Positions 1 to 64,000 of a stretch of DNA of 64,000 nt are shown here, piece by piece (position 1 is the first letter of the stretch; each line of letters begins with the position of its first letter). The notes beneath the pieces were generated by a model. The model was given only the letters and a program-made list of their open reading frames with translations. It made no database searches and was not told the origin of the DNA. The position numbers and the translations under genes were made by a program. Source of the DNA: a virus. The stretch is taken from IMG/VR virus record IMGVR_UViG_3300028840_006907, positions 288,001 through 352,000 of that record; one strand, 5' to 3'.

Positions 1-1
1 T

Positions 2-706
2 ATGAATTCGGTCGGAAAAAGAATTTGGATTGGGGCTGATGATCCTAAAAATTTGACCTTAAGAGTAGTAGACGAAAATTTAGACTATGCTTTTGAGATA
101 GGTATGTCTGATATGAAAGATACAGCACATTTATTAAATGCTCAAGAAATCGAAGTTTTCCGAAATAGCAAAGACCACTGGAGATTGGTGAAGGATGTCA
201 AGATCACTGAGCATCAGAAATATCTAATTAGTCATTCTTATTTCAATGGTATGGCGGATTATTTGAGTAGAATTTACAGTCAAGAGTCGTACTTTAGTGA
301 TTTACGGTTGAATGGTGAGATCAAGATATTAAAAGAAGGCGAATTACCTTTATACGATATTAATCCAGAAAAAGAAACCTATTGTTTTGGTGAGGATGGT
401 GAAGAGTTAATAAAGGTTGGATTTAAAAACAGAGTATATGTCCCTCTTTTTGAGATAGCCCAATGTCCTTTAAAAAAGTATAACTCTGTATGGGATGTAA
501 AGGTAGACGATTTTATTACCAATAATGATTTATTGGAATATGAGAACGATTTTTATGAAAGAATCGTAAAGGAGATAGGGACAAAAGTTAAGATAATTAT
601 CCCTATAAGAACTCCTATAACTGTTTTACCAGTGACTAACTGGGTTAAAGGTGAATTTGGTTTTTCATCTTTTATTATTCTTGGGATCGGAGTATTTAAA
701 CAGTGA
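2..706 (+). CDS. hypothetical protein (5' end may lie outside the window)
   Basis: Long ORF starting at window edge; hydrophobic C-terminal tail; no recognisable motif. Confidence 0.5.
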   Translation: MNSVGKRIWIGADDPKNLTLRVVDENLDYAFEIGMSDMKDTAHLLNAQEIEVFRNSKDHWRLVKDVKITEHQKYLISHSYFNGMADYLSRIYSQESYFSDLRLNGEIKILKEGELPLYDINPEKETYCFGEDGEELIKVGFKNRVYVPLFEIAQCPLKKYNSVWDVKVDDFITNNDLLEYENDFYERIVKEIGTKVKIIIPIRTPITVLPVTNWVKGEFGFSSFIILGIGVFKQ

Positions 707-1434
707 TTGATATTTTTATGACCACATGGTTTCGAGAAGAGTTCACACGTAAGTCTATTGAATTGATTCATGAAAGGACTAAACCTGGCACTTTCCAACT
801 TCATATTTTTGATAATAACAGTGGCCCGAAGATGCGCGAGTATTTAATAGGGCTTTTAAAAAATAAGAAAATAGCATCATTACATCTTGATTCTCGGAAT
901 ACCGGATGTCTTTATAATAAAGGTATTTTTCATATGATGGTGGAGGATTTTTGTAAATATTATATATGTACAGATAATGATGTCTATCCGCCTAAACTCT
1001 CTCCTGATTGGCTATCCCAGATGATTAAAATTATGGATGCTCATCCTGAACTAGCCTTTCTTGTCCCTCAGATACCCCCTCAGTGGCTTCAGGAACCTGA
1101 TCTTGCTAATTTAAAGGATGATATCGTTTATTGTAAAGCTGTTGGAAACACTTTTAAATTAGTTCGTAGAAAAGCGTTTCCTATATCAGAATTCCGTCCT
1201 GTACTAGGAGCATATGGTGATGATGCTCAGGTATGTGAACAGGTAAAATTACGAAATTATAAAGTAGCGTTTTGTCGGAATATTTTTTGTTATCATGCAG
1301 GACAATGTGAAAATTGGGGTTATAAAAAAGAAGAGATAGATTTGGATCCTCGTAAAGATGGTTACGGTAAACCGTTTAGCTATAAATTAATGAATGAAGA
1401 AACCTATGAACCTTTTCCGGAGAACAAAATATGA
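703..1434 (+). CDS. putative GT-A fold glycosyltransferase
   Basis: ORF with GTG 703 / ATG 718 start; HIFDNNSG and TDND acidic motifs reminiscent of GT2 nucleotide-sugar binding; weak. Confidence 0.4.
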   Translation: MIDIFMTTWFREEFTRKSIELIHERTKPGTFQLHIFDNNSGPKMREYLIGLLKNKKIASLHLDSRNTGCLYNKGIFHMMVEDFCKYYICTDNDVYPPKLSPDWLSQMIKIMDAHPELAFLVPQIPPQWLQEPDLANLKDDIVYCKAVGNTFKLVRRKAFPISEFRPVLGAYGDDAQVCEQVKLRNYKVAFCRNIFCYHAGQCENWGYKKEEIDLDPRKDGYGKPFSYKLMNEETYEPFPENKI

Positions 1435-1778
1435 AAAAGGCCACAGTAATAAGTCTGAGTGTAATAGTAGCTATTCTGGCAATAATTATTATAGTTACAA
1501 TAACTCATAACAGTGGAATAAATCTTACCAATCTTCATGTATCTGAAGATAAAAAAATTGAAGTAAATGAATGGGAACCTATAAAAACAGCCGGTGAAGA
1601 TGAACTAGTAAAAGTAGTTTGGGATCAGAAATATGGAGCTACGAAGACTGAGAATTGTAAAGTTGTATTTGAGAATAAGAAAAAGAAATTGTATAAATTA
1701 ATTGCCCCTGGTCTGGAAGTAGTAATAGAGCGTTCAAATATAAATGATATCTCATTTGAGATTATTAAAAAACAATAG
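1431..1778 (+). CDS. hypothetical membrane-anchored protein
   Basis: ATGA start/stop overlap with upstream gene; N-terminal hydrophobic helix (VISLSVIVAILAIIIIVTI). Confidence 0.5.
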   Translation: MKKATVISLSVIVAILAIIIIVTITHNSGINLTNLHVSEDKKIEVNEWEPIKTAGEDELVKVVWDQKYGATKTENCKVVFENKKKKLYKLIAPGLEVVIERSNINDISFEIIKKQ

Positions 1779-4335: not shown

Positions 4336-7320
4336 ATGGCAGAGCAATTAAAAGTTGGATGGGTCGGATATGGGGGTAATAGTTGGATGGCTGAGGATCT
4401 TCGGCCAGTTATAGAAAAGCTAGGAATGACTTTATTCACGATTCATGAACATGATAACGCAGATATTAAATGGGAAAAGGATAACTGGTTCAATCATTTA
4501 AAAAAAGCTGATATAGTTATAGCTCCAGCTAATTATAAAAAACAACCTGCAAAGAGTGCAAATCGATTAATACAATCAATGTCAATGGGTAAACCTGTCA
4601 TATGTTCTCCTTTACCTGCATATTTAGATGTGGCTAAAAAACATCCTGGTTCATTTCTTCTAGCTGATGTCCCGGAAGAATGGGAGGAATGTTTAAAATT
4701 GCTTAGAGATAATCCTTCTTTTCGTAAACAGATGAGTGAGAAGGCTCTAGAAGCTGTTGAAGATTTTTCGATAAATGTCATAGGAAATAAGTGGCTAGAA
4801 TTATTAGAGAAAGATGTACCAATAAAAAAAGATACTGAATCGAATAAAGTTCTTATTACAGATATAATCATACCTACATATAAAAATCTTCGTGGCTTGA
4901 AGTTATGTATTGAGAGTATTCTGGAGTGTACGTTAGTGCCGTACAATATTATAATTGTAAATAATGGAACTGATGAGGAATTGCATAACTATTGTTCTCA
5001 ATTGGTAAATGTAACTTACATAAAAAAAGACAGACTTAATTTTGCCCAAGCCATGAATGTCGGGATTAAAGCAGGTGATTCTGATTTAGTCGTTCTATTA
5101 AATGATGATGTTATTGTCAGTAAAGGATGGCTTATGAATTTGAAATATGCCTGTACTGAAGATGTGGGTGCAGTAGGACCTTTAAGTAATTGTGATAAAT
5201 CCTGGCTCCATAATCATGATATCAATATTGGTGGAGTAGAATTACTGCCTGGTTCAAATACTTTTGAACAAATTGAGCCTATTATTTCTCAGATATATAA
5301 TTATGAATCTCCTTTTTTAGAAGAACCTGAACGAAAATGGGTTGCATTTTATGCTACTTTAATTCCTCGGTCAGTAATAGAAGAAGTAGGTTTTTTAGAT
5401 GAGTCCTTTACAAATTCGGGAGAGGATGTTGATTATTGTAACAGGATTATGAAGTTAGGGTATAAAATAAAACAGACCTATAAAAGTTTTGTATTTCATT
5501 TCGGAGCTGTAAGTAGGAAATTACTGGAGCAGGAAGATAAGGGCACTTATCAGAAAGCTGATGAGGAGACTCAAGAATATTTAAAGATCAAGTATTCAAA
5601 ACCAACAGTAATAATCTATTCCGGTGCCAGTTGGGAGAGATGGAGTTATAAGTCTCTTGAACAGGGGGGTATTGGTGGTAGTGAAGTTTGGCAGATAAAT
5701 GTTTGTCGTGAGTTAAATAAATTGGGTTATAGAGTAATCAGTTTTAATGATTCCCCGGAAAAGGAAATGTGGGAAGATGGGATTCAATATCTTCATTATG
5801 GAGAATTTTCGAAATGGTGTGATGGTAACTATGCCGATTACGCAATTATAAGTAGAACAACCGATCCTTTACATCATCCTTTAAGAGCTGGAAAAATATT
5901 TATAATGGTTCACGATGTCTGGTTACTTTCTGCTAGAGATCAATTATTCCTTGATAAAGTAGATAAATTTTGTGTACTTAGTAAATGGCATTGGGATTTT
6001 TTTAAAGGTCACCATGGAATCCAAGATGAATCAAAATTGGCGTTGACTTCTAATGGGATAGATTTTAATCGTTATGATAACAAAAATATTGAAAGACATC
6101 CTTATAAAATGTTTTACAGTTCTTCCCCGGATCGAGGTCTTGATACACTCCTTTACCTATTTCCCTTTATTAAGGAAAAAATTCCAGAACTTGAACTCCA
6201 TATTTATTATGGATTTAACAATTGGGAAAAGGCAGTGAAGATGAGAAAAAACCAGATTGAGATAGATAGAATGAATAAAATAAAAAAGGATATGGAACAA
6301 CCTGGGGTATTTTATCATGGCCGAGTTGGTCAGAAGGAGCTAGCTGAAGCGCAATTAGAATGTTCTCTTTGGGCCTATCCGACGGATTTTGAAGAAGTTT
6401 TTTGCATCACTGCTATTGAGGCTCAAAGAGCCAGAATCCCTGTATTAGCAACGAATTACGCTGCTTTACAGACAACAGTAGGTGACTCAGGAATTCTAAT
6501 AGGAAATGGCATGAAAGGAGAATCTTATACACGAGATTATCGATTAAAATTTGTAGATGAGTGTATAAAAGTTTTAACAGATAAAGAATATAGAGAACAC
6601 TGGATTGAGAAAGGTTTAAAAAATACGGAGAAATATTCTTGGGAACAAGTGGCTAAAAATTGGAAGAAATTGTTTGAAAAAAGTGATCAAAAAGTAGAAG
6701 CAAAAATTATAGATGAAAAAGAATACAAGAAAGATCGAGTGCTAGTTCATGAAATGAAAATAAGTTCTAATTATATGCCAGATCCTCACAGCCATTTAAA
6801 TAATGAGAGAGATCGTTTTCATTATTATAAAACACTTAATGCTTTCGTTTCATCAAATTCATGTAGTGCATTGGATGTGGGTTGTTTTGATGGGTGGATT
6901 GATTTTCTTCTTATAGAACAAGGATTTAAATTAACTGGAGTTGAGTTGATGGAACCTCTTGTTCAAGCTGCTCGAAAATATGCAGAAGTTAAACAACTTG
7001 ATTATACAATTTATCAGGGTTTTTTTGAAGAGATTGAGATAGACCAGAAATTTGATTTAGTGATATGTTTGGAGACTTTGGAACATATTGATTTAAAACT
7101 TGTCCCTGAGTATATACAAAAAATGAAAAGTCTTGCTACAAAGGGTCTTTTCATATCACTCCCGGATCAGAAACATGAAGATAATACCCAGCATTTATGG
7201 ACACCTACTGAAAATTTAATAAGAAAAATGTGGGGTAATAAAAAGAATTTTTCATTGGAATACCATACTTATCAGGATTCAAATTTACCCGCTAATTGGT
7301 TAATTTATTTCGAAGTGTAG
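4336..7320 (+). CDS. multidomain glycosyltransferase (GT-B C-terminal-like / GT2 / GT4-like / C-terminal class I SAM methyltransferase)
   Basis: 994 aa; GT2-type region (IIIPTYKNL...IIIVNNGTDEE), GT4-like region (EVFCITAIEAQRARIPVLATNYAALQ), methyltransferase region (LDVGCFDGW ... LVICLETLEHI). Confidence 0.8.
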   Translation: MAEQLKVGWVGYGGNSWMAEDLRPVIEKLGMTLFTIHEHDNADIKWEKDNWFNHLKKADIVIAPANYKKQPAKSANRLIQSMSMGKPVICSPLPAYLDVAKKHPGSFLLADVPEEWEECLKLLRDNPSFRKQMSEKALEAVEDFSINVIGNKWLELLEKDVPIKKDTESNKVLITDIIIPTYKNLRGLKLCIESILECTLVPYNIIIVNNGTDEELHNYCSQLVNVTYIKKDRLNFAQAMNVGIKAGDSDLVVLLNDDVIVSKGWLMNLKYACTEDVGAVGPLSNCDKSWLHNHDINIGGVELLPGSNTFEQIEPIISQIYNYESPFLEEPERKWVAFYATLIPRSVIEEVGFLDESFTNSGEDVDYCNRIMKLGYKIKQTYKSFVFHFGAVSRKLLEQEDKGTYQKADEETQEYLKIKYSKPTVIIYSGASWERWSYKSLEQGGIGGSEVWQINVCRELNKLGYRVISFNDSPEKEMWEDGIQYLHYGEFSKWCDGNYADYAIISRTTDPLHHPLRAGKIFIMVHDVWLLSARDQLFLDKVDKFCVLSKWHWDFFKGHHGIQDESKLALTSNGIDFNRYDNKNIERHPYKMFYSSSPDRGLDTLLYLFPFIKEKIPELELHIYYGFNNWEKAVKMRKNQIEIDRMNKIKKDMEQPGVFYHGRVGQKELAEAQLECSLWAYPTDFEEVFCITAIEAQRARIPVLATNYAALQTTVGDSGILIGNGMKGESYTRDYRLKFVDECIKVLTDKEYREHWIEKGLKNTEKYSWEQVAKNWKKLFEKSDQKVEAKIIDEKEYKKDRVLVHEMKISSNYMPDPHSHLNNERDRFHYYKTLNAFVSSNSCSALDVGCFDGWIDFLLIEQGFKLTGVELMEPLVQAARKYAEVKQLDYTIYQGFFEEIEIDQKFDLVICLETLEHIDLKLVPEYIQKMKSLATKGLFISLPDQKHEDNTQHLWTPTENLIRKMWGNKKNFSLEYHTYQDSNLPANWLIYFEV

Positions 7321-7322
7321 TT

Positions 7323-7610
7323 ATGAATAGGTATGACATTATTTTGGGTAACAATAGTCGGTTAGCGATGATGGAAAAATGGTCCCCTAAAGATTATAGA
7401 CAGGAATATTTAGGGGAATTCGTAAAACCAACATGTTCAGTTTCTGATGGTCATAATAATTATTGCCCATCAAAACCAGAACATTTTTTTGAGTATCATG
7501 GTAAAGAAGTGGGTTTATGTAAAGACTGCTATTTACATTATTTAAATGGACATTTTGATAAAAGATTTCAGAAAAAGAATTATGGTTATACCATCTATCA
7601 AATCGATTAA
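7323..7610 (+). CDS. hypothetical Cys-rich small protein
   Basis: ATG immediately after upstream stop; several Cys (CSVSDGHNNYC...CKDCYLHY) suggest metal binding. Confidence 0.35.
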   Translation: MNRYDIILGNNSRLAMMEKWSPKDYRQEYLGEFVKPTCSVSDGHNNYCPSKPEHFFEYHGKEVGLCKDCYLHYLNGHFDKRFQKKNYGYTIYQID

Positions 7611-7611
7611 A

Positions 7612-8247
7612 ATGAAAAAAGGGCTATTTTTTACTTTTGAAGGTATTGATGGTTGTGGCAAAAGTACTCAATTAAGATTATCTACAGAATATCTTAAAAC
7701 TAAAAATATCCCTCATATAGTGACCCGAGAACCGGGAGGTACACCACTAGCAGAGAAAGTCAGAGAAATAATATTATCCCCACAGAATGATATTAAAGAT
7801 CGAGCTGAAGTTTTATTATACCTTGCTTCTAGAGCACAACATGTGGAAGAAAAGATAATCCCGGCAATGGAGCAAGGTAAAATTGTGCTTTGTGATCGTT
7901 TTCAGGAAGCTACATTTGCTTATCAAGGATTTGGTCGTGGTTTTTTAAGAGAGACTTTAGAAGTTTTAAATAATTTCTCTACTGATGGGTTGCAGCCAAC
8001 AAGGACCTTTATTTTTGATGTGAGTCTTAAATGTGCTAGTGAGAGATTAAAGAAGACCGGTAAAGCTCCGGATCGGCTTGAGCAAAATTCTCTTGAATTT
8101 TTTAGTAAAGTACGACAGGGTTTTTTTTCTCTAGCTGAAATTCATTCTGATCGAATACATCTTATTAATAGTGAGAAACCTATAGATGAAATTTTTGAAA
8201 TTGTTAAAAAAGATATAAACAAATATATAGATTATGGAAGCATATAA
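7612..8247 (+). CDS. tmk: thymidylate (dTMP) kinase
   Basis: P-loop FEGIDGCGKSTQ near N-terminus, DR motif (LCDRF), LID-like region; ORF track start 7546 is a non-ATG upstream extension. Confidence 0.8.
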   Translation: MKKGLFFTFEGIDGCGKSTQLRLSTEYLKTKNIPHIVTREPGGTPLAEKVREIILSPQNDIKDRAEVLLYLASRAQHVEEKIIPAMEQGKIVLCDRFQEATFAYQGFGRGFLRETLEVLNNFSTDGLQPTRTFIFDVSLKCASERLKKTGKAPDRLEQNSLEFFSKVRQGFFSLAEIHSDRIHLINSEKPIDEIFEIVKKDINKYIDYGSI

Positions 8248-8930: not shown

Positions 8931-10280
8931 ATGGAACAAAAATTATCGGTTATAGGATTAGGTAAATTGGGCTGTACAATGATGGTATGTTTTGCTCATA
9001 AAGGATGGGAAGTTATAGGGGTTGATGTTAATGAATTAACTATTGAAACTATTCTACGAGGTCGGAGTCCTATCGATGAACCTTTTGTAGAAGAGATGAT
9101 AAGTGATAATGCAGAAAGGATAAGAGTAACATCTGATTGTGAAAATGCTGTTTTAAATAGTGATGTAAGTTTTGTAATAGTTCCTACTCCCAGTAAGGAA
9201 GATGGGTCTTTTTCGACAGAATATGTTGAAAATGCTACAATGGAAGTTGCGAAAGCTTTGACAAAAAAGAACTCTTATCATTTAATTGTAATTACTTCTA
9301 CTGTTCTTCCTGGAGACAGTCTTCGAATTTCTTATGAGATTGCTCGGGAGTCAGGGAAAGAACTAGGAAAGGATTTCGGTGTTGTTTATAATCCTGATTT
9401 CATAGCACTCGGTAAAATTGTCAGCGATTTTTTAAACCCTGACATGATCCTTATCGGTGAGTACGATGAGAAGTCAGGAGATATCATTCAAGACATACAC
9501 CTGAAACTTATAGATAGTAATCCTACTTTTCATAGGATGAATTTCTTTAATGCTGAACTGGCGAAAATTTCTCTTAATGCCTACTGTACTTTGAAAATTA
9601 CTTTTGCGAACATAATCGCGGAGATATGTGAGAATTTACCTGGCGGTGATTCTAATAAAGTCTTAAGTGCTGTAGGAGCTGATAGTCGGGTGGGTCAAAA
9701 ATATCTCAAAGGTGGTTTGGGGTACAGCGGACCATGTTTTCCGCGTGATAATCGAGCCCTCGCCCATTCTGCAAGGTTCTTTGGCACTACAAATTATTTC
9801 TGTGAGATGACAGATGCAATAAACAACTATCATAAAACAGAAAGAATATGCAATCTTTTATTGGGGTACATGGAAGAAAAGAACACAAAAGAATTAGCTA
9901 TACTTGGTTTATCCTATAAGGAAGATACTCCTGTGATTGAAGAATCTGTATCTATTTCAGTTATAAAAACTCTTTGGGAAAAAGGAATGAATATAAAAGT
10001 TTTTGATCCGGTTGCTATGGAAAATGCAAAAAGAGAATTAGAAGGTTATGATAATATTTATTATGCCTCTTCTGAATATGATTGTATAGATGGTACTTCC
10101 GTTTGTTTTATAGCTACTCCTTGGAAACAGTTCTTTAGTTTGAATCATCAAGAAGTAATAAAAAGAATGAAAAAGAGTTCTATTATTCTTGACTCATGGG
10201 GAGTATTACCTTATGACAGAGCAACTAATAGAGGCAAAAAAGTAGAGGTAAAACAACTAGGGAAAAATTATCAATCGTAA
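8931..10280 (+). CDS. nucleotide-sugar 6-dehydrogenase (UDP-glucose/GDP-mannose dehydrogenase family)
   Basis: N-terminal Rossmann VIGLGKLGC, catalytic-Cys motif GYSGPCFPRD, RBS AAGAGG upstream. Confidence 0.85.
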   Translation: MEQKLSVIGLGKLGCTMMVCFAHKGWEVIGVDVNELTIETILRGRSPIDEPFVEEMISDNAERIRVTSDCENAVLNSDVSFVIVPTPSKEDGSFSTEYVENATMEVAKALTKKNSYHLIVITSTVLPGDSLRISYEIARESGKELGKDFGVVYNPDFIALGKIVSDFLNPDMILIGEYDEKSGDIIQDIHLKLIDSNPTFHRMNFFNAELAKISLNAYCTLKITFANIIAEICENLPGGDSNKVLSAVGADSRVGQKYLKGGLGYSGPCFPRDNRALAHSARFFGTTNYFCEMTDAINNYHKTERICNLLLGYMEEKNTKELAILGLSYKEDTPVIEESVSISVIKTLWEKGMNIKVFDPVAMENAKRELEGYDNIYYASSEYDCIDGTSVCFIATPWKQFFSLNHQEVIKRMKKSSIILDSWGVLPYDRATNRGKKVEVKQLGKNYQS

Positions 10281-10342
10281 AAATTAGATATAAGAAGTCT
10301 CATTGAGACTATTCAATAAAATAATAAATAGGAATAAAAAAG

Positions 10343-11146
10343 ATGCCGAGATTAAGCTTTATTGTCACTGGACGAAATGACAATTATGACCAAAATTTTA
10401 ATGAACGTTTAACCATCGCTTTAAGAAGAAATATAAAATCCCTTCCAGACGCTGAATTCATTTTTGTAGAATGGAATCCTTATTTAGACCGCCCATTAAC
10501 ATGTTCAAAATTAAAAAGGACTTTTGGAGATCGAGTTAAATATTATGTAGTTCATCCTAAATATCATAAATATTATTGTAACATTGATGGTTTTCTTGAA
10601 TACCCTCCAAAAAATATCGGAATACGTAAGGCTACAGGTGAATTTATTATTTGTACAAATTCAGATGTAATTTTTTGTCCAGATCTAGTTCATTGTATGA
10701 ATATGCATTTGGAAAAAAATGTCCTTTATCGTGCTACTCGAATTGATATCCGACCAGATTATCTTAATGTAAGTTTCCCCCTTCATCCAAAATTTAAGCT
10801 TGAAACAAATCAAGGTCCTATGAATGCAGCGGGTGATTTTCTTTTAATGCATCGGGATCTATGGTATAAAACTACTGGTTATTGCGAGGAATACCCGTGG
10901 CAGAGATTACATAAAGATGCTCAGATAGTTTATTTGCTTTCTAATAAAAGAGGGTATGAAGTTCGAAACATAGGATCTATGACACATTGGAGACATCCTA
11001 GCTCCTGGTCTAATGGAAAATGTCGAGCTAGAGTAGGTGATGTGAATTGGGATTTTCAAAAATGTAATTACAAAATGAATAAAAAAACATGGGGTCTCAC
11101 GTTTACAGATGAGGTCGAAAAAGACGGCATAATTTGGCTAATTTAA
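10343..11146 (+). CDS. putative GT-A fold glycosyltransferase
   Basis: SFIVTGRNDNYD and TGEFIICTNSDVIF resemble GT2/GT7-type motifs. Confidence 0.45.
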   Translation: MPRLSFIVTGRNDNYDQNFNERLTIALRRNIKSLPDAEFIFVEWNPYLDRPLTCSKLKRTFGDRVKYYVVHPKYHKYYCNIDGFLEYPPKNIGIRKATGEFIICTNSDVIFCPDLVHCMNMHLEKNVLYRATRIDIRPDYLNVSFPLHPKFKLETNQGPMNAAGDFLLMHRDLWYKTTGYCEEYPWQRLHKDAQIVYLLSNKRGYEVRNIGSMTHWRHPSSWSNGKCRARVGDVNWDFQKCNYKMNKKTWGLTFTDEVEKDGIIWLI

Positions 11147-11176
11147 ATTTACATATAGATATTGAAAGGAGATTGT

Positions 11177-12151
11177 ATGAAACGTATATTGGTTACTGGA
11201 GCAGGCGGTTTTATTGGAGGCCATTTAGTCACTCGATTGAAAGAGGAGGGCTATTGGGTTCGTGGAGTTGATATTAAAGAGCATGAATATAAGAAGACTG
11301 ATGCAGATGAATTTTATCTTAAAGATTTGAGAATAATGCAAAATTGTCTTACTTCATGCGCTGATATTGATGAATGTTATACATTAGCTGCTGACATGGG
11401 TGGTGCAGGATTTGTTTTTACTGGTGAGAATGATGCTGATATCATGCATAATTCTGCGAAGATAAATTTAAATATGGCTGAAGCTTGCCGAATACAAGGA
11501 GTAAAGAAGATATTTTATTCCTCTTCAGCGTGCATGTATCCTGCTCATAATCAAACCGATCCGGATAATCCTTTACTTTCTGAGGATTCTGCTTATCCTG
11601 CAGCTCCCGATAGTGAATACGGGTGGGAAAAACTTTTCTCAGAACATCTTTATTTAGCTTATAACAAAAATTATGGACTGGATGTTCGTGTGGCAAGATT
11701 TCATAATATTTTTGGAGTTTTGGGAACATGGCAAGGTGGAAGAGAAAAAGCTCCTGCTGCATTGAATCGTAAAGTAGCTATGGCTAAAGATGGTGATGTA
11801 ATCGAAGTGTGGGGACCTGGTACTCAAACACGTTCTTTCCTTTATATAGAGGAATGTATTGAAGCAGTACGTCGTTTCATGGAATCAGATTTTTTAGGCC
11901 CTGTAAATATAGGTTCTGAAGAAATGATTTCAATAAACGATCTTGCGAAAATGGCCATAGATATTAGTGGTAAAAAACTTACTATCAAAAATGTGGAAGG
12001 TCCTGTAGGAGTTATGGGCCGTAATTCAGATAATAATTTATATGAAGAAAAGGTTGGATGGAGACCTTCAAAACCTTTACATTATGGTATGGAAAAGACT
12101 TATGCTTGGATAAGTGATCAAATTAAACAAATTTATCCCTTTAGAAAATAG
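11177..12151 (+). CDS. NAD-dependent sugar epimerase/dehydratase (SDR family; GDP-mannose 3,5-epimerase-like)
   Basis: RBS AAGGAG then ATG 11177; VTGAGGFIGGHL Rossmann motif; SSSACMYP...AYPAAPDSEYGWEKL resembles GME-type active-site region. Confidence 0.8.
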   Translation: MKRILVTGAGGFIGGHLVTRLKEEGYWVRGVDIKEHEYKKTDADEFYLKDLRIMQNCLTSCADIDECYTLAADMGGAGFVFTGENDADIMHNSAKINLNMAEACRIQGVKKIFYSSSACMYPAHNQTDPDNPLLSEDSAYPAAPDSEYGWEKLFSEHLYLAYNKNYGLDVRVARFHNIFGVLGTWQGGREKAPAALNRKVAMAKDGDVIEVWGPGTQTRSFLYIEECIEAVRRFMESDFLGPVNIGSEEMISINDLAKMAIDISGKKLTIKNVEGPVGVMGRNSDNNLYEEKVGWRPSKPLHYGMEKTYAWISDQIKQIYPFRK

Positions 12152-12154
12152 CTT

Positions 12155-12856: not shown

Positions 12857-12865
12857 GAGGATAAA

Positions 12866-17141: not shown

Positions 17142-17155
17142 TAGGAGGACGAAGT

Positions 17156-45599: not shown

Positions 45600-45613
45600 A
45601 AGGTTTATAATAT

Positions 45614-46051: not shown

Positions 46052-46053
46052 TT

Positions 46054-46431: not shown

Positions 46432-46437
46432 GGTCCT

Positions 46438-47013: not shown

Positions 47014-47027
47014 ATGGAGGATTTAAA

Positions 47028-50816: not shown

Positions 50817-50823
50817 AGGTAAT

Positions 50824-51387: not shown

Positions 51388-51416
51388 TTGATCTTATGAT
51401 ATTTATGTTTTAGTAT
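51388..51416 (+). promoter_or_regulatory. candidate sigma70-like promoter / leader end upstream of the repeat array
   Basis: TTGATC - 17 nt - TAGTAT immediately before the first repeat, inside an AT-rich leader-like region 51253-51416. Confidence 0.2.
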
Positions 51417-52409: not shown

Positions 52410-53315
52410 ATGGCAATTGCGTTTATGAGAGGAAGCACCACTAATCAGAATGATTTGACCATAACGGTACGTGATACATCCAATAATTTGATCGACCCGT
52501 ATTCGTTGGAGTATGCTGTCTTCGATTACACTAGTGGCACTGAGGTCCTCATCGGATCCCCTGTTAATACTCCGCTCAAGTTGTCAACAGGAGAATATTG
52601 GGCGGAGGTTGTAATAGCAGCCGATGCCAATATAGGTCTCTGGCGCATCCGTTGGACAATTCAAGAAACAGCAGTCAGTCCTGTTTATCAATCGGTTCAG
52701 GAATTTCAAGTAGTAGGTTCCAGTGTTGTGACGAGTGTAACCGGAGATGCAAATTTTGATGCATTGGTCCATTCTTTACGAGTGATACTCCGAGACAACA
52801 ATCCGGACCGCAACTACAGATTTCGTCCCCCAGCTTCCGAGAAATTTATCCAAGGTCAGACCCAAGTCTTTGGATTCATTTGGGAAGATGAAGAGCTTGT
52901 AGAGTATATATACATGGCTATTGACGACTTCAATTCACGCCCCCCGACTACAGGTATAGATGTGGCCAATCTTTGGGGAACTGAGAGACGGTGGAGAACT
53001 ACAATTATTTTAAGAGCAGCAGCTTTTGCATGTTTCGCTATAACAATGAATTGGATCGCTGACGAATTTTCTTATTCAATTTCTGGAGTATCTCTTGACA
53101 TTGAGAAATCTTCGAAGTATCAATCTATGAAAGAGAATTATATCAATGAATATGACAAGCTTGTCGAGGCCAATAAGAGATCCATAAAAATTATAAAAGG
53201 TCTTAGGCAATATCGGTACGGGGTGGGCATCACGAGCGCCCTGGGACCCATGAACAGACCTGGAGTTCAAAGTAGAAGAAACCTTATAAGTCCAAGTTAT
53301 GGCCCTTATTTCTAA
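52410..53315 (+). CDS. hypothetical protein
   Basis: RBS AAGGAAAAAG; 301-aa ORF directly downstream of the array. Confidence 0.55.
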   Translation: MAIAFMRGSTTNQNDLTITVRDTSNNLIDPYSLEYAVFDYTSGTEVLIGSPVNTPLKLSTGEYWAEVVIAADANIGLWRIRWTIQETAVSPVYQSVQEFQVVGSSVVTSVTGDANFDALVHSLRVILRDNNPDRNYRFRPPASEKFIQGQTQVFGFIWEDEELVEYIYMAIDDFNSRPPTTGIDVANLWGTERRWRTTIILRAAAFACFAITMNWIADEFSYSISGVSLDIEKSSKYQSMKENYINEYDKLVEANKRSIKIIKGLRQYRYGVGITSALGPMNRPGVQSRRNLISPSYGPYF

Positions 53316-53408: not shown

Positions 53409-55859
53409 TTATATTTTATTATTTTTTCTAAGGAGAGCTATCTGACGTTTAATCCATCGAGGAGTTTCTTCAAGAGTTTCAGCCATTTGATTTCTTGTCA
53501 TCTTTCCACGATTATCTATTATGAATTGGAGCTTTTCTTCAGTCTTTCTATCTTTGGTACAACCAATAGGGTTTTTTGTAGATAATGTACCTTTTTTTTG
53601 TAAGAATTTTATTTGAGATTTAACCCATCGCTCTGTTTCATTGAGAGCTTTAGATAATTCTTTTTTAGTTTTATTTTTATAATTAGTGATTATATACTGC
53701 GTTTTTTCAGGGGTTCTTCTACATTTTGTTGAGAATTTAGAAATCTCTTTTAAATAGGTAAATTTCTCAGTGGGTTGTTTAATATTTATATCTTCAATAC
53801 ATTTTGAATTATATATTTCTTTTTCTCTTTTAGGATAAGGTTTAGTAACATAATTTTTTAATTTGTTAATTTTTTTCTTATCTCTTTTATTTTCACCTAT
53901 TAATAAGACATATTTATGTTTTCTTTCAGTAATAAATTTTTGAGCTTCAGATAATATATTTTTATTCCAATTATTCCATTGAACTTTAATTCCTTCTGGT
54001 ATGGTACTCATATTTTTAAAACCATTTTCTTTAAACCATTCCTTTTGAGAAATAATCCCTTGATTTTTACACCATTTTTTAAATGCTGATGTACGTTTTA
54101 GAGATTGAGCTGAAAAAGTCCTATTATTTTTAATGGAAGGATGTTTATATAAGTATGAACTTCCAAAGTTATTTCCTAGATAATCAAATCCACAAGCTTG
54201 GTAAATAGTCCCTATTTCAAGAGCTTTAGGATCAGCATAACCTATGAAAGCTCTTTTAGAAGTGTTATTAGCCATCCAATTACAAGCAAACCTTATAAGA
54301 CGGCTACCCAGGTTTTTCGGGGTCCATGAGGCAGTGGCACCTCTTTGAATTAAAGCTTCATATTTGGGAGTATCTTTACCTAGAATTTTGGAATATGCTG
54401 TGGGTTCATTTATAAATAATACTCCTGCGAGAATATTATTGTATCTGGCTGTGAAGCACCATTTTGGTATTACTCCAATTGTTCCTAACCATTCATATTT
54501 TTTTATAAATTGGACCATTTCATTATTAAATTTTTCTTCAGATAATGTAAAAGAAGTAGCTTTTAAAGAAGAGTGATTGAAATCGATATTTTTTTTATCT
54601 TCATCAATCCATTGAAGTTTCTTTTTATATTGGTGGCATATAAAAGTGGTCTTGTTTTTACTGTTAATTTTATTTTTTATTAAATCAATGATAATACCTT
54701 TTCGGATAGCTTCTTTTACATCATCAGACCAAAATCTAATCAAATTGGGTATATTTTTATTTTGGATTTCATCATTCTTAATATTTTCTTTTATTTTTAA
54801 TGCCCTTGGAGACGTATCATTTTCTCTTATTTCTTTACCATGCCAATAATTACCATCATATTGTACCCATAAGTTATAGCGAGGCATATAGAAATCAATT
54901 ACATGTTTAATAATTGGGTGCATAACTTGATGTTCTACAAAAGGATCAAATACAATAAGATAATTAAAAAAGTTATTTTCTTCATCTGAGGATGAGAAGG
55001 AATTATTTAGTTTAACTGTTTTATATGTTTTTTCTTTTATTTCAACATTCTGTTGGGGATTTTCAACGCCATATCTTTCAATATTAGTTTCAGTGATTTT
55101 TTTCTTAATCTCTGGAGATTGGAATACATTGTCAACCCCGTATCTTGATTGTACTGTTACTTTAACTTTTCTTTTTACTTCTTTAGATTGAGAGGGGTAT
55201 TCTACTCCTCGTTTTTCAATATTAGATTGACGGGATTTTTCTTTCATTGAGTTTAGTTGAGTAGAATATTCTACGCCATAACGTTTTTTAATAGTTTCGT
55301 TATTATGTTTAACTATATCTTCATTTATTTTATCTCGATTCCTTCTTAATCCTAGTTTAATAGCTCTTTCTCGGATGGCTTTCCAGGTCCTGTTTTCAAA
55401 GTAGAGCATAATAAATTCCATAGAATTCTTTTCATATACTTCTTTTAAAAGATCATCTTCTTTGGGTGACCAGAAGTCTTCCCTAGCAGGAGCGCTTTTA
55501 CCACCATCAATCATTTCTTGTTTAATTATTTCAGGATTTCTTTGAAGGTTTAATTTTTGAGCATTACTTCGGATGCTTTGCCATGATCGATTCTTGAATT
55601 TAGAAAGGATAAATTCTTTTGAATTATTTTCATATATATTTTTAAGAATATTTATCTCTTCGGTTGTCCAGGAATCTTTTCTTGGTCCTCTTTTTTTACG
55701 GTCTTCATTTATAAGGTCAGGATTACGGTGAAGATTTAGCTTACGTGCTTTTCTACAGATGGTTGTCCAAGATTTATTTAATTTGGAGATAATAAATTCT
55801 TTTGAATTATTTTTATATATTTCTTTTAATAAATTTTCTTCTTCTATTTTCCAACGCAT
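53409..55859 (-). CDS. large multidomain DNA-binding / nuclease-like protein
   Basis: Start at MRWKIEE (RBS AGAGG; track start 55916 is a non-ATG extension); three tandem ~60-aa HTH-like repeats (W..EE..L...Y...S.EFI..F.NR.W..IR..A.KL.L.RN), tandem RYGVEN repeats, Vsr/DUF559-like motif FYMPRYNLWVQYDGNYWHG, two C-terminal ET.RW.K.QI.LL.K repeats. Confidence 0.6.
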   Translation of the reverse strand: MRWKIEEENLLKEIYKNNSKEFIISKLNKSWTTICRKARKLNLHRNPDLINEDRKKRGPRKDSWTTEEINILKNIYENNSKEFILSKFKNRSWQSIRSNAQKLNLQRNPEIIKQEMIDGGKSAPAREDFWSPKEDDLLKEVYEKNSMEFIMLYFENRTWKAIRERAIKLGLRRNRDKINEDIVKHNNETIKKRYGVEYSTQLNSMKEKSRQSNIEKRGVEYPSQSKEVKRKVKVTVQSRYGVDNVFQSPEIKKKITETNIERYGVENPQQNVEIKEKTYKTVKLNNSFSSSDEENNFFNYLIVFDPFVEHQVMHPIIKHVIDFYMPRYNLWVQYDGNYWHGKEIRENDTSPRALKIKENIKNDEIQNKNIPNLIRFWSDDVKEAIRKGIIIDLIKNKINSKNKTTFICHQYKKKLQWIDEDKKNIDFNHSSLKATSFTLSEEKFNNEMVQFIKKYEWLGTIGVIPKWCFTARYNNILAGVLFINEPTAYSKILGKDTPKYEALIQRGATASWTPKNLGSRLIRFACNWMANNTSKRAFIGYADPKALEIGTIYQACGFDYLGNNFGSSYLYKHPSIKNNRTFSAQSLKRTSAFKKWCKNQGIISQKEWFKENGFKNMSTIPEGIKVQWNNWNKNILSEAQKFITERKHKYVLLIGENKRDKKKINKLKNYVTKPYPKREKEIYNSKCIEDINIKQPTEKFTYLKEISKFSTKCRRTPEKTQYIITNYKNKTKKELSKALNETERWVKSQIKFLQKKGTLSTKNPIGCTKDRKTEEKLQFIIDNRGKMTRNQMAETLEETPRWIKRQIALLRKNNKI

Positions 55860-55962
55860 ATGAGTACCTCTTTTTAGTATATTACTTATTATAACAGGTA
55901 TTAGAGTTATTGTCAATATTTCATTTAATAAATATGGAATTCATTAATTTATAGGGAAAAAG

Positions 55963-59978: not shown

Positions 59979-62900
59979 ATGGCTCAAGTAGAAAGAAAAT
60001 GGATCCAGGACCAAGCAATTTCCAATGAAAAAGTAGATCCCACTGATATTTATACCATTACAGGTTTAAGAGTTGATGAAACCAATGCCATTGGGAGAGT
60101 AGGAATAGGTTTATCTAGCCCTTTGGATGCTCTTCATATTCAACGAACTGATTCTTCTTCTGGAATGATGCTGGATCTTAGTGATGGTACAAATGGTAAA
60201 CTTTATAAGATATATTCAGGAGCTAATGGTTTACTGAATTTTACTGATGCTACAGATGGGGGCATATTCACCTATGGTGAATCAGGTTCGATAGGTCGAG
60301 TTGGTATCAATACCGCATCTATCCAAGATCACCTTCATGTAAGTTCCCCTTTAACAGATGCTGCGTTAAGACTTGATTTAGATGATGGACTCAATGGTCG
60401 AGCTTATCGTCTTGTCTCAGATACAGATGGAGCTTTTAGGATAATTGATGTTGATGCGGGTAATGTAAATAGACTTCAGATTGCTAATACAGGAACTTTA
60501 ACTGTCTCAGGTGATGCAACTTTTGATAGTAATTTTCAAATTAATGGTACTGTTACAGTTATTAATACTGAAATTGTCATTGCAGATCAATTAGAAATAA
60601 ATCAAACTGACAATCAGGCAGCATTGATAGTAAGTCAAGATACAGGTGGTGCTACAGCCACTGTAATGAGAATTGAAAATGCTGGCACAGGCCATGCTTT
60701 AACCGTAGATTCTGGTAATGTAGGTATTGGTACTTTAACTCCGGCTGCTCCTCTTCATGTTCAAGGTGATATAATTACTGCCAATGGGTATAATATCGGA
60801 GACACCACTCATAGAATTGGTACTCTTTGGATGGCTTCTACTGTAGATTATTTGACTGACCTTAATTTTAGTTCAGGTGGAACAAATGTTACTTTTGCAA
60901 CCGGTGGAAATGTCGGGATAGGTTCTGGTACTCCTACCCAGGCCCTGGATGTGGTTGGAACTATAGAAAATACAGGTGATATCATAACAACTGGTTCTTA
61001 TCCTTCCGGTTTAATAAGAGGAGCTTATTTAACGATAACTACTGGAAATTCGACTTTCCAAGGAAGAGTGGGAATTGGTGTTACAAGTCCGTCTTATCCT
61101 CTTCATGTTGGTGGAGACATTTATTCCAATACAGGTAATATTGTAGCCACTGCTGGAACTGTGACAGGTGGATCTGGTTTAATAGCTACTACAGGTGGTG
61201 TTATAGCCTCTGCTGGAAATATAACAGCGACCTTGGGTGATCTCATCGCTTCTGCGGGTTCTGTAACTGCTAATACAAATGTAACTGCTACGAATGGAAA
61301 TATAGTTGCTTCTAATGGAAATATTTCTGCTACGAATGGTACAGTAACAGGAGGCACCGGTTTAATAGCTACCACAGGGGGTGTGACCGCTACGAATGGA
61401 AATATAGTTGCTTCTAATGGAAATATTTCTGCTACGAATGGTACAGTAACAGGAGGCACCGGTTTAATAGCTACCACAGGGGGTGTGACCGCTTTAGCTG
61501 GTAATATCTCTGCTTCGGCTGGTTCTGTAACTGCTAATACTAATATAACAGCCACGAATGGTAATATTGTTGCTTCTAATGGAAATATTTCTGCTACAAA
61601 TGGTACGGTAACAGGAGGCACCGGTTTAATAGCGACTACAGGTGGTGTAACCGCTACGGCTGGAAATATCACTGCTTCAAATGGTAGTTTTGTCGCTCCA
61701 AATGGAATTGTAAGTGTAGGTTTTGGCGTTATAGCAGCAGGGGGTGATATATTTGCCCAAACGGGTAAAGTAGGAATTTCAACCAGTTCTATTGCAGGAG
61801 GTTATGTATTACATGTTCAAGGAAACGCTTATTGTTCAGGTCAAGTAGATACAAATACTTTGGATGTAGGTAGTGGCAGTTTTACTGTAAGTGCAATTGG
61901 TGCAACAAATATCGGACCAGGCTGGTTAACTTTCGGTCAACATATGTCTGGTGGAGGACAGATTGGATCTGCTTCTACCGTAAATATTGTTTCAACCAGT
62001 GGTGCAACTATGTCAGGAGGTTCAGGCGCTGTCTCAATTACTACTAATAACAGTGGTACGCCAAGTGCGATTAATGTGACCTCTGGAAATAACACCGGAT
62101 CAGGAGTTGGTGGAGCACTCAATCTGAATGCAGGTGATTCGGGAGGAGCTGGTACAGGTGGTGCAGTAACTATTACTGGAGGAACGGCTTCAGGTGGTGG
62201 ATCTACAGGAGGAGACATTTTGCTGCTTCCTGGAAGTGCTGTCTCAAATGGGCGCGTTGAGGTAGGCACAGGTGCCTCTTCGAAAAATTTATGGGTTTCA
62301 GGTAGTGTAACTATAGAAGGAGCTAATTCTGCTTTTGCTCTTTCGATTAATAATACGAATTATGTAGGAGCTTATTGTGCAATAGCAGGAGCATCAACGG
62401 TAGCTGGCTGGTTTGAAAATAGTGGTTCAGATTCAACATCTATGTTTGTGCAACAATTAAATACTGGTAAAGGGCTTTTCGCTACTGGATTAGGATTAAA
62501 TTCTTTTGCAGGATTTTTCCAAAGTACGGGCTATACAACTCTTAGGTCAGAAGTGAGTGGTACTGGAGGTGGTGATTATGCTGTACATGCAATATGTACA
62601 AATGCTGGATCGAGTGCCACTTCAGCAGCAGTTTTTGCTCAAAATTGGGGAGGTGGAAAAGCTATTCAGGCAACCGCAGGAACTGGAACTACTATTCAAG
62701 GGTCAAACACTAATGGTACTGCTATTTATGGGTCTCAAGCAGGAACCTCTGGTAGAGCAGGACGTTTTAGGTGTAATGCTGGATCTTATGCATACAATGC
62801 TGTTGAGGTAGAAGTGACTTCAGGTACAGGAGCTTCAAAAGGGATCTTAGTTAATTATACCGGTTCTGGTAATGCTATAGAAGTAAACGGTGGTAGTGGC

Positions 62901-63665
62901 TATGGTATTGAAGCATACCAAAGTGCAGGAACAGTTTATCATGGGACTAATTCAGGAACTACAGGTAGAGCTGCTTTATTCGAAACTTCTAATACCAGTT
63001 TTAATGGTACTATAGTTGAAATAAGTAGTAATACAACATCACTGAATAATAATTGTTTAGTTTGCAATCATTCAGGTAGTGGTACAGGTCTTACTGTTAA
63101 CTCCAATGCAGCGGGTGCTAGTTTTGGTATTAACAGCTTTATGCCGGGTGTCTCTGGAACTGGAAGAGCTATTAATGGCTACTGTGTTTCAGCATCAGGA
63201 TTTGCCGGTTATTTTACTGGGAATGTACATATTGCGGGTACTCTTTCTAAAACTGCGGGTGGTTTTAAAATTGATCATCCAATTGAACCTGAGACAAAGA
63301 ATTTAGTTCATAGTTTTGTTGAAAGCCCTGAGATGAGGAATGTCTATTATGGACGGGCTGTGACTCATGATGGGACAGCATCTATAGGTCTTCCGGATTG
63401 GTGGGTTACATTAAATGGGTCTAATAAGGAAGAGTATAATTATAGTTTAACTACTATTGGTAAATACAGCAGATTATTTATTAGTAAAGAAATAGAGAAC
63501 AATCAATTTGAAGTCTCTTCATTGGATGGAGACTGTACTTTTTCCTGGACTATCTCAGCCATTCGCCATGATACTTATGCTGAGAGCAACAGAATACAAG
63601 TAGAAAAGAACAAAACACAAGAAGAAATAGATGATTATAAAAAAGAGCATGGCATTTCTGTCTAA
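59979..63665 (+). CDS. giant Gly/Thr/Ser-rich fibre protein (tail-fibre or surface-fibre like) with internal tandem repeats
   Basis: 1228 aa; RBS AAAGGAG; at least six G.VGIGT..P...LHV.G motifs, 34-aa tandem repeats, C-terminal FKIDHP...VHSFVESPE...YYG domain. Confidence 0.8.
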   Translation: MAQVERKWIQDQAISNEKVDPTDIYTITGLRVDETNAIGRVGIGLSSPLDALHIQRTDSSSGMMLDLSDGTNGKLYKIYSGANGLLNFTDATDGGIFTYGESGSIGRVGINTASIQDHLHVSSPLTDAALRLDLDDGLNGRAYRLVSDTDGAFRIIDVDAGNVNRLQIANTGTLTVSGDATFDSNFQINGTVTVINTEIVIADQLEINQTDNQAALIVSQDTGGATATVMRIENAGTGHALTVDSGNVGIGTLTPAAPLHVQGDIITANGYNIGDTTHRIGTLWMASTVDYLTDLNFSSGGTNVTFATGGNVGIGSGTPTQALDVVGTIENTGDIITTGSYPSGLIRGAYLTITTGNSTFQGRVGIGVTSPSYPLHVGGDIYSNTGNIVATAGTVTGGSGLIATTGGVIASAGNITATLGDLIASAGSVTANTNVTATNGNIVASNGNISATNGTVTGGTGLIATTGGVTATNGNIVASNGNISATNGTVTGGTGLIATTGGVTALAGNISASAGSVTANTNITATNGNIVASNGNISATNGTVTGGTGLIATTGGVTATAGNITASNGSFVAPNGIVSVGFGVIAAGGDIFAQTGKVGISTSSIAGGYVLHVQGNAYCSGQVDTNTLDVGSGSFTVSAIGATNIGPGWLTFGQHMSGGGQIGSASTVNIVSTSGATMSGGSGAVSITTNNSGTPSAINVTSGNNTGSGVGGALNLNAGDSGGAGTGGAVTITGGTASGGGSTGGDILLLPGSAVSNGRVEVGTGASSKNLWVSGSVTIEGANSAFALSINNTNYVGAYCAIAGASTVAGWFENSGSDSTSMFVQQLNTGKGLFATGLGLNSFAGFFQSTGYTTLRSEVSGTGGGDYAVHAICTNAGSSATSAAVFAQNWGGGKAIQATAGTGTTIQGSNTNGTAIYGSQAGTSGRAGRFRCNAGSYAYNAVEVEVTSGTGASKGILVNYTGSGNAIEVNGGSGYGIEAYQSAGTVYHGTNSGTTGRAALFETSNTSFNGTIVEISSNTTSLNNNCLVCNHSGSGTGLTVNSNAAGASFGINSFMPGVSGTGRAINGYCVSASGFAGYFTGNVHIAGTLSKTAGGFKIDHPIEPETKNLVHSFVESPEMRNVYYGRAVTHDGTASIGLPDWWVTLNGSNKEEYNYSLTTIGKYSRLFISKEIENNQFEVSSLDGDCTFSWTISAIRHDTYAESNRIQVEKNKTQEEIDDYKKEHGISV
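61288..61491 (+). repeat. two perfect 102-bp in-frame tandem repeats inside the fibre gene (third diverged copy near 61552-61653)
   Basis: Identical DNA units encoding TATNGNIVASNGNISATNGTVTGGTGLIATTGGV. Confidence 0.85.
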
Positions 63666-63695
63666 ATTTCTTTTGTAAAAAGGAGTTAAATACTC

Positions 63696-64000
63696 ATGTC
63701 ACAAGTGTTGAGAAAATGGATAGCTGATCAAGCCGTTAATAATGATAAAATAGATCCTACCGATACCTATACAATTACAGGATTGAGAGTCGATGAGACG
63801 AATGCCGTAGGAAGAATAGCAATGGGATTAAGCAGTCCATTAGATGCTATTCATATTAGGAGGACTGATACTTCTGCTGGTATAATAATGGATCTTGATG
63901 ATGGAGGTTCAGGACGATCTTATCAAATAACTTCAGATCAAAGTGGCTTTTTAAATGTAAGAGATAGAGATCTCGATGTTGATCGATTGACTTTATATTC
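63696..64000 (+). CDS. second fibre protein, paralogue of 59979 gene (3' end outside window)
   Basis: RBS AAAGGAG; N-terminus MSQVLRKWIADQAVNNDKIDPTDTYTITGLRVDETNAVGR closely parallels the N-terminus of the 59979 protein. Confidence 0.6.
   Translation, partial: MSQVLRKWIADQAVNNDKIDPTDTYTITGLRVDETNAVGRIAMGLSSPLDAIHIRRTDTSAGIIMDLDDGGSGRSYQITSDQSGFLNVRDRDLDVDRLTLY

Follow-up and report, generated by a model that had tools for sequence, protein, structure and literature searches.

A huge-phage genome segment with a large glycan island, capsid-derived genes and a CRISPR-like array

Phages with genomes of more than 200 kb are known as huge or jumbo phages. Three examples are Bacillus phage G (Donellivirus gee), with 498 kb, the uncultured phage LR745208.1, with 485 kb, and Tunturiibacter phage Tunturi_5, with 309 kb. 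The subject here is a stretch of 64,000 nucleotides (nt), from here on called the window, which is found at positions 288,001 to 352,000 of IMG/VR virus record IMGVR_UViG_3300028840_006907. With a probability of about 0.92, it comes from within the genome of a tailed huge phage (Caudoviricetes) of roughly 469 kb, of the same size class as these three phages and in their broad lineage. As a replicon this is a known kind. It is a notable variant in the scale and content of its glycan island, in the arrangement of its capsid domains and in a degenerate CRISPR-like array.

Giant eukaryotic viruses have glycan gene clusters, with glycosyltransferase and methyltransferase genes near the capsid genes. 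For phages, PMC12619734 cites Freeman et al. 2023 for virion glycosylation shown in mycobacteriophages Che8, Corndog and Myrna. There, as in the window, glycosyltransferase and methyltransferase genes lie beside capsid or tail genes, and lipid-carrier and export genes are lacking. The window however has about 45 glycan genes where the mycobacteriophages have a handful, and its virion glycans are predicted from genes. Also unlike the mycobacteriophages, it has a complete-looking nonulosonic-acid pathway, and radical S-adenosylmethionine (SAM), thiamine pyrophosphate (TPP)-dependent and sulfotransferase enzymes.

CRISPR-type arrays without cas genes are known from huge phages. Such arrays are compact, with host-like repeats and a median of six repeats (Al-Shayeb et al. 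2020, PMC7162821). Phage G lacks a CRISPR array (PMC12484599).

Replicon, relatives and virion genes

The proteins of the window match exactly those of a contig of 388,651 bp, Ga0180437_10000019 from JGI metagenome 3300017963, where the window lies reversed at about 88.4-152.4 kb. Identical proteins are also found on contigs of 469,617 and 469,260 bp (NCBI, ENA, Logan), and in other runs and samples. The three contigs of stated length exceed 200 kb. Exact-pattern searches of IMG/VR, the JGI metagenome scan collection and the GTDB representatives did not turn up the contig. Because the two independent assemblies are almost equal in size, they suggest a discrete replicon of about 469 kb. The sequence analysed is 82 kb of this: the window, 8.2 kb of left flank and 9.7 kb of right flank, with 94 open reading frames (ORFs). 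The left flank carries a phage topoisomerase (phrog_6247, 4e-60) and an HNH endonuclease. Core cellular genes, which would have pointed away from a virus, are absent from the 94 ORFs, flanks included.

The structural genes of the window are common only to jumbo or huge phages and IMG/VR viral contigs. ORF74 (52410-53315, plus strand; 301 amino acids) is a head-tail connector homologue, found by tblastn and profile search. In tblastn it matches Tunturi_5 gp319, a 'head-tail connector protein' (5e-29, 89% coverage), LR745208.1 (6e-38) and phage G gp165 (2e-9). The connector label is the depositor's annotation of Tunturi_5 gp319; sequence and profile searches of ORF74 against the PDB gave no match. 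A connector profile made from four sequences hits 154 viral contigs in IMG/VR, the longest of 536 kb; the closest are 54-59% identical. One of 466,729 bp is among the nearest relatives, at 56% identity.

The connector family is common to the window, phage G and Tunturi_5, and a SWIM-finger protein of the virion module is shared as well. Homology to the phage G virion is found in two places, via ORF74 and via ORF48, one of the capsid-derived genes described below.

The gene order also agrees. LR745208.1 has terminase (411 kb), capsid (397 kb), zinc ribbon, an ORF63-like gene, connector (355 kb) and DUF7487, and this is collinear with ORF1, ORF56, ORF63, ORF74 and ORF75 of the window. The nearest IMG/VR relatives keep the order ORF56, glycosyltransferase, ORF9, ORF58, ORF59, ORF61, connector, ORF75.

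Several of these genes belong to a virion module at 39997-47807 on the plus strand, delimited with Pfam, PHROGs and homology. It holds ORF53 (492 amino acids, with a low-complexity middle) and the SWIM-finger protein ORF54 (41453-43231), whose SWIM region matches Tunturi_5 gp336, a 'tail protein'; ORF54-like genes are near the connector in 28 IMG/VR loci. Then follow a zinc ribbon (ORF56, 43559-43954), a DUF5659 protein (ORF59, 45114-45410), a virion structural protein according to PHROG (ORF62, 46054-46431) and ORF63 (46438-47013), all on the plus strand. ORF56, ORF58, ORF59, ORF61 and ORF63 are conserved beside the connector in LR745208.1, in IMG/VR relatives, or in both.

Several points weigh against this placement. 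Just 7 of the 94 ORFs have detectable homologues in LR745208.1, which makes the relationship a distant one. There is no tRNA in the window. Within the 82 kb there is no sign of the phage's own terminase, portal or sheath, nor of a full-length capsid gene, and the LR745208.1 terminase, used as a query, found none from the 469-kb contig among the best 120 of 1185 family members. The terminase and portal of this genome must be in the remaining 390 kb or so.

Hallmarks go unrecognised because sequences of this lineage have diverged so far. Against Pfam TerL_ATPase the terminase of LR745208.1 reaches only E = 0.0026, and the capsid protein of that phage reaches 1.5e-4 against Phage_capsid, both below gathering scores. 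Many terminases of the LR745208.1 clade (P0015, P0017, P0023 and others) are about 1050-1080 amino acids long and contain intein/LAGLIDADG domains (PF14528, PF14890). In this clade the terminase seems to be a common target of inteins.

The general make-up of the window is that of a compact prokaryotic replicon. It has about 78 credible genes, a coding density of 92%, a median same-strand gap of 2 nt, and overlaps at 30 of 70 junctions. A Shine-Dalgarno-like motif precedes 37 of 77 genes, versus 8.7% of random positions. G+C is 29-40% within the window and about 33% for the genome, compared to 55% in LR745208.1. There are three strand blocks: plus at 1-25480, minus at 25632-39759 and plus again at 39997-63665. 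Two genes run counter to their block, at 26196-26963 (plus, inside the minus block) and 53409-55916 (minus, inside the second plus block).

The original prediction, made from the sequence alone, had described such operons and translation signals, and had noted the lack of tRNA, integrase, transposase, terminase and portal. Both observations stand, the latter after Pfam, PHROG and tRNA searches of the window. Its statement that no capsid or other hallmark could be recognised does not: the connector homologue, the PHROG virion protein and capsid-derived genes are there, and are highly divergent. The capsid-derived genes (1-706, 37345-37842, 38393-38731 and 43210-43578) are, like the connector homologue and the PHROG virion protein, too divergent for Pfam. 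Rfam has no family in the window at gathering thresholds, and none of 50,697 phage records was matched when 24 kb of the window were compared by megablast.

That prediction also placed fibre-like proteins at both ends. This is correct for the right end, where ORF82 (59979-63665, plus) encodes a fibre-like protein of 1228 amino acids with tandem repeats of 21, 81 and 102 nt (Tandem Repeats Finder, repeat search). At 61280-61686 the 102-nt and 81-nt repeats are near-perfect and encode 'TNGNIVASNGNISATNGTVTGGTGLIATTGGV' units, which are likely a site of length variation. The next gene in the source contig is a paralogue (68% identity over the first 450 amino acids), and the run of giant fibre-like genes downstream of ORF82 has products of 1158, 741 (Laminin_G_3) and more than 1088 amino acids. 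Head-tail joining and tail or fibre functions are represented by ORF74, the PHROG virion structural protein and these giant genes.

The left end is weaker. ORF4 (1845-2657, plus; 270 amino acids) has seven Gly-X-Y triplets in its translation, flanked by coiled-coil-like sequence, and no family hit. Its protein is identical on 7 contigs, and the IMG/VR relative of 466.7 kb (L044) has a full-length homologue (35%), 6.5 kb downstream of its connector. It is possibly a small fibre or whisker.

Next to the connector, ORF75 (53409-55916, minus; 835 amino acids) combines DUF7487/homing-endonuclease-like repeats and a Mom-like DNA-modification domain (PF24308, PF25680), with PHROG matches to phrog_1384, phrog_12131 and phrog_3339. 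It also follows the connector, equally placed and oriented, in two IMG/VR relatives (L040, L043). Its N-terminal modules are repeated, with three direct repeats of about 190 nt at 55393-55853.

The glycan island and its likely target

About 35 kb of the window, at 4.3-39.8 kb, consists of glycan genes. Pfam and NCBIfam find a nonulosonic-acid pathway, at least five glycosyltransferase domains and at least nine SAM methyltransferase domains, so that the glycosylation locus seen by the first reading of the sequence is confirmed. The island sets the window apart from its phage G relatives.

The first part is on the plus strand. ORF9 (4336-7320) is a fusion of GT2, GT1 and SAM methyltransferase domains (994 amino acids, Pfam), and a thymidylate kinase follows (7546-8247; PF02223, 7.4e-42). 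A sugar-nucleotide and nonulosonic-acid operon then occupies 8931-25480 (Pfam, NCBIfam). It starts with UDP-glucose dehydrogenase (8931-10280), an epimerase (11162-12151), a sugar-1-phosphate nucleotidyltransferase (12155-12856), a formyltransferase (12866-13759) and a PIG-L deacetylase (13756-14415). These are followed by a LegB-like dehydratase (14412-15380, 390 bits), a LegC-like aminotransferase (15373-16449, 304 bits), a NeuB/PseI-like synthase (17132-18151; NeuB 244, PseI 179 bits), a PseG-like protein (18144-19052, 64 bits) and a CMP-sugar synthetase-like (PseF-like) protein (19056-19718, 48 bits). A hexapeptide acetyltransferase (21162-21737) and several SAM methyltransferases are also part of this operon.

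There is a candidate for every step of the nonulosonic-acid pathway. All best NCBIfam hits are below equivalog cut-offs, and the exact sugar is not nameable. A search of the literature found no report of this pathway in a huge phage, which, given open-access coverage, is weak evidence.

The second part is a glycan-tailoring operon on the minus strand, at 25632-39759 (Pfam, PHROGs), in which the plus-strand gene at 26196-26963 is embedded. It encodes methyltransferases, a split TPP-dependent E1/transketolase-like enzyme (27859-28485 and 29514-30038), a radical SAM enzyme (28478-29545), a GT10-like transferase (33287-34090), an FkbM methyltransferase (34090-34710), a fusion of methyltransferase and GT2 (34711-36765) and a GT2 (39085-39759). 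The gene order of this operon is the same in three related contigs (L005, L018, L034). Further right, on the plus strand, are a rhodanese-domain protein (47967-48536, PF00581) and a sulfotransferase (49032-49610, PF03567), and this stretch also matches phrog_3347. Glycan sulfation is a possible role for the two.

Some details of the island stand on their own. The radical SAM gene lies between the two halves of the TPP-dependent enzyme, within 27859-30038, and this set may make a branched-chain or C-alkylated sugar. Paralogue pairs occur at 16446-17141 and 20367-21158 (ORF21 and ORF26, 1e-32), and at 30039-30656 and 32001-32615 (1.5e-31). A 237-amino-acid ORF at 21730-22443 (plus), which overlaps the next ORF by 65 nt, was outside the family scans.

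Genes of this type are well known from the legionaminic and pseudaminic acid loci for bacterial O-antigen, capsule and flagellin. Such loci share the LegB-, LegC-, NeuB-, PseG- and PseF-like proteins, the formyl- and acetyltransferases and the UDP-glucose dehydrogenase. The island is unlike them in that its scores fall below equivalog cut-offs, in its location among phage structural genes, and in that no Wzx/Wzy, ABC exporter, initiating or Maf-type transferase is detected. Among the window ORFs other than 21730-22443, Pfam finds no initiating polyprenyl-phosphate transferase, flippase (Wzx), polymerase (Wzy), chain-length regulator or exporter.

The island lies between ORF1 and the connector, and among the virion genes of relatives there are ORF9-like and 693-amino-acid transferases. 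For ORF9 these are full-length homologues (35-38%), beside structural genes upstream of the connector in four IMG/VR relatives (L040-L043). Because assembly and export genes are absent, the island sits in a virion module and capsid-domain genes are embedded in it, the gene content speaks for proteins, most plausibly those of the virion, being glycosylated directly in the cytoplasm.

The proposed mechanism would then be as follows. During infection the phage would make its own activated sugars, including a nonulosonic acid of legionaminic or pseudaminic type. Heavily methylated glycans would be built in the cytoplasm, straight on protein acceptors, possibly with formylation, acetylation and sulfation. 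The acceptors would most likely be virion proteins; the A-domain proteins encoded in the transferase operon are candidate acceptors or adaptors.

A huge phage could also use such an island differently. Its glycans might remodel the host envelope, for superinfection exclusion or receptor masking, or they might hypermodify the phage's DNA with sugars. PMC12619734 presents phage glycosyltransferases as known for serotype conversion and for DNA glycosylation. PHROG hits include GtrB-like O-antigen conversion families. That phage glycosyltransferases can remodel the host surface counts against a virion target, and so do the thymidylate kinase in the island and the Mom-like gene nearby, which make DNA modification possible. 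An envelope glycan would however call for a lipid-carrier initiating enzyme, a flippase and an exporter, none of which is seen among the ORFs scanned. As for DNA, we know of no report of nonulosonic acids or multi-step methylated oligosaccharides as its modifications. The island is moreover embedded in the virion module and holds capsid-domain proteins. Envelope or DNA targets are possible, but on this evidence less likely, and virion glycosylation is preferred.

Capsid-derived genes

More distantly related IMG/VR contigs carry one capsid gene, which is intact and lies 6-8 kb upstream of the connector; both ORF1 and ORF48 match it. The window instead has, at the position of the capsid gene, a gene without an A-domain, plus four free A-domain genes. 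There is no intact full-length HK97 major capsid gene within the 82 kb: ORF1 lacks the A-domain, and ORF48, ORF50 and ORF55 are A-domain alone.

ORF1 (1-706, plus; 249 amino acids) has its first 43 nt to the left of the window. Its product is homologous to the major capsid protein of phage-G type, with HK97 fold. The N-arm/E-loop and the C-terminal P-domain strands are kept, and some 130 central residues, the A-domain, are gone. It matches Tunturi_5 gp334 (blastp) and the LR745208.1 capsid gene (tblastn), and phmmer aligns two segments, at major capsid protein positions 34-102 and 247-279.

A MAFFT alignment shows what remains. Still present in ORF1 are the 'LPxYD...GEDGE...VPLFEIA' E-loop and the 'IPIRTxxTVL...GFS' C-terminal strands, with a short unrelated stretch in between, and ORF48 is the counterpart of the part that is absent. 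A word-indexed search with ORF1 found only itself, a scan of IMG/VR found nothing, and a single-sequence AlphaFold model was discarded (predicted local distance difference test score, pLDDT, 32.5).

ORF48 (37345-37842, minus; 165 amino acids) is a stand-alone A-domain of the HK97 fold with a long C-terminal helix, and its gene is one of those in the glycosyltransferase operon. Matches are to the major head protein of Tunturi_5 (1.5e-22) and to PHROG 2522, 'major head protein'. The match to phage G gp27 (6wkk_A, residues 159-241, 7.7e-16) ties it to the short HK97 capsid family of that phage. With an alignment of 114 sequences, AlphaFold predicts a compact fold (pLDDT 95.4), and comparison of this model with solved structures shows the HK97 core fold.

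A hidden Markov model (HMM) was built from 12 full-length capsid proteins of other metagenomes and searched against the 94 ORFs. ORF48 matches it at positions 171-255 (7.8e-34), ORF50 at 181-239 (2.1e-7) and ORF55 (43210-43578, plus), also A-domain-like, at 173-249 (3.9e-5). ORF1 matches at 70-118 and 258-291 (6.7e-11).

ORF50 (38393-38731) and ORF51 (38722-39081), both minus, are small A-domain-like paralogues (8e-9 to each other). Small genes equivalent to them are found between the GT2 and ORF48-like genes of two related contigs (L018, L034). The cassette of GT2, small A-domain proteins and methyltransferase-GT2 fusion is kept in three related phages.

ORF48 could be thought a recent pseudogene fragment. 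This was rejected, since orthologues of the same length exist at the same operon position, the family is one of short proteins and the predicted fold is confident and compact. A word-indexed search found one relative only. Exhaustive HMMER searches found 397 clusters at 50% identity, mostly of 120-220 amino acids and aligned end to end. No Pfam family covers these free A-domain proteins.

Two members of this family are of separate interest. One of 290 amino acids (P0160) apparently has two A-domains in tandem. A distant one, P0137 (5607-6158 on contig L036 and 5199-5750 on L037), comes after an Apyc1 anti-Pycsar gene and before genes for an intein-containing SNF2 helicase, DnaB and primase. 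That context is early or counter-defence, not structural.

A fission of the HK97 capsid protein into domains can be proposed. ORF1 may supply the lattice of E-loop and P-domain, with the A-domain provided in trans by ORF48, ORF50, ORF51 and ORF55. Because three A-domain proteins are encoded inside the glycosyltransferase operon, such proteins might be swappable, heavily glycosylated modules on display on the capsid surface. The free A-domain family, with its 397 clusters of which some are near anti-Pycsar genes, could alternatively act as decoys for capsid-sensing bacterial immunity.

A likely counter-defence locus, host and significance

A short distance upstream of the connector is a gene for a Tad3-family protein (50788-51252, plus), a predicted inhibitor of type I Thoeris. 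It scores 109.1 bits against PF25185, where the cut-off is 27 (1.5e-31), and the gene is also in the JGI annotation. The array begins 160 nt downstream of it, on the same strand and without cas genes.

The CRISPR-like array of the original prediction is real. It is found at 51415-52260 (plus) by repeat search and tabulation of repeats and spacers, and is of a type I-E-like kind, with 15 repeats of 29 nt and spacers of 20-33 nt. The repeat consensus is ATATTCCCCGCnnnTGCGGGGCTGAACCG, abbreviated as ATATTCCCCGC...GCGGGGCTGAACCG. As in type I-E repeats, the stem is of Cas6e type, with 6 bp closed by a loop of 4 nt. The period is likewise near 61 nt, with 61-62 nt in 7 of 14 cases. Half of the spacers, 7 of 14, are 32-33 nt long, and spacer G+C is 33%. 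The same repeat pattern is found in regular arrays of Nitrospirillum, Pseudoalteromonas, Propionibacteriaceae, Rhizobium and other bacteria.

In other respects the array is degenerate. The canonical 3' handle CTGAACCG is present in only 3 of 15 repeats and lost in 12, and the spacers are not uniform. The hairpin, in contrast to the handle, is kept in all 15 repeats. Its stem cells are paired at 96.9%, and the innermost pair is C-G (in 12 repeats), A-U, G-C or U-G, with compensatory double substitutions of this pair in the repeats at 52003 and 52118.

No cas genes were found in the 82 kb by Pfam and PHROG scans. The spacers do not match the 82 kb of the phage itself at up to 4 mismatches. In Rfam the array region matches no family, and its sole match at an E-value of up to 1 is a chance microRNA hit. 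Upstream is an AT-rich, leader-like sequence; downstream are a sixteenth, divergent hairpin (52291-52310) and a terminator-like stem. Three minus-strand ORFs of 58-98 amino acids at 51529-52246 are artefacts of translated repeats ('APHTRGI' peptides); JGI calls one gene there (L001 1551-1847).

The pairing with Tad3 suggests a counter-defence locus. Since the handle is lost, the hairpin is retained and Tad3 adjoins, the array could be an RNA decoy that titrates host Cas6e or Cascade, instead of a guide array. Processing or binding of the array would fall to Cas proteins of the host, because the repeat resembles those of bacterial type I-E systems.

RNA anti-CRISPRs (Racr), or solitary repeat units, were reportedly described by Camara-Wilpert and colleagues in 2023. 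Like these and the cas-less arrays of huge phages, the array is phage-borne and has no acquisition or interference genes. It is unlike the huge-phage arrays in having 15 repeats against a median of six, lost handles in 12 of 15, irregular spacers and an adjacent anti-Thoeris gene. Taken as one joint reading, capsid domain fission, with its variant of free A-domain decoys and with the RNA decoy of the array, is improbable, and is offered tentatively.

The I-E-like repeat pattern, being one found in bacterial arrays, points to a bacterial host, which the repeat does not identify further. This bears on what else the window might be part of.

A non-viral giant extrachromosomal element, or an integrated huge prophage, would take the place of a free lytic phage genome. 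An integrated state is formally possible, which counts against a free genome, and the JGI contig, at 388 kb, falls short of the 469-kb ones. The two independent assemblies of 469,260 and 469,617 bp are however nearly equal, virion genes are present, and neither integrase nor partition genes occur in the 82 kb. Such an element is very unlikely.

A large archaeal tailed virus is more improbable still. Thoeris is known as a bacterial defence system, and Tad3 counters it. The repeat is of the bacterial type I-E kind and in the scan is matched in bacterial genomes only, Shine-Dalgarno motifs are enriched, and all cultured relatives infect bacteria. In favour of an archaeal virus, the best NCBIfam hits for the UDP-glucose dehydrogenase include the archaeal AglM model, and PMC6137143 places nonulosonic acids in archaeal glycans. 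The sample project is also reportedly labelled as one on archaeal communities of sediment.

Finally, the window might belong to the chromosome of a low-GC bacterium or archaeon, as an island for surface polysaccharide (O-antigen, capsule or S-layer glycan) in which the phage-like genes are remnants. This would account for about 35 kb of genes for nucleotide sugars, glycosyltransferases and methyltransferases, a set typical of polysaccharide islands, and for the absence of terminase, portal and integrase from the 82 kb, but it is hardly credible when the scanned ORFs include no flippase, polymerase, chain-length regulator, initiating transferase or exporter, when core cellular genes are missing, when phage structural and counter-defence genes flank the sugar genes left and right and also occur among them, when the same genes adjoin connector and virion genes in IMG/VR viral contigs, and when contigs of about 469 kb recur.

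The archaeal and polysaccharide-island options of the original prediction are therefore unsupported, given the lack of export functions, the phage genes flanking and inside the island, the Shine-Dalgarno usage, the I-E-like repeat and the bacterial hosts of relatives. Its third option, a huge phage, is the one that the 388.7-kb contig, the recurrences at about 469 kb and the structural and counter-defence genes support.

The replicon question is settled for the window, and all findings here should be taken as the biology of a huge phage with a bacterial host. Routine hallmark detection misses a whole clade of huge phages, as the clade's terminase and capsid are below Pfam thresholds. Three features are testable. 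One is the large unannotated family of free capsid A-domain proteins, together with a capsid homologue that lacks exactly that domain. Another is the counter-defence locus, which pairs an anti-Thoeris protein with a degenerate, cas-less I-E-like array. The third, a phage glycan factory with a nonulosonic-acid pathway, nears the clusters of giant eukaryotic viruses in scale and would extend virion glycosylation far past the mycobacteriophages.

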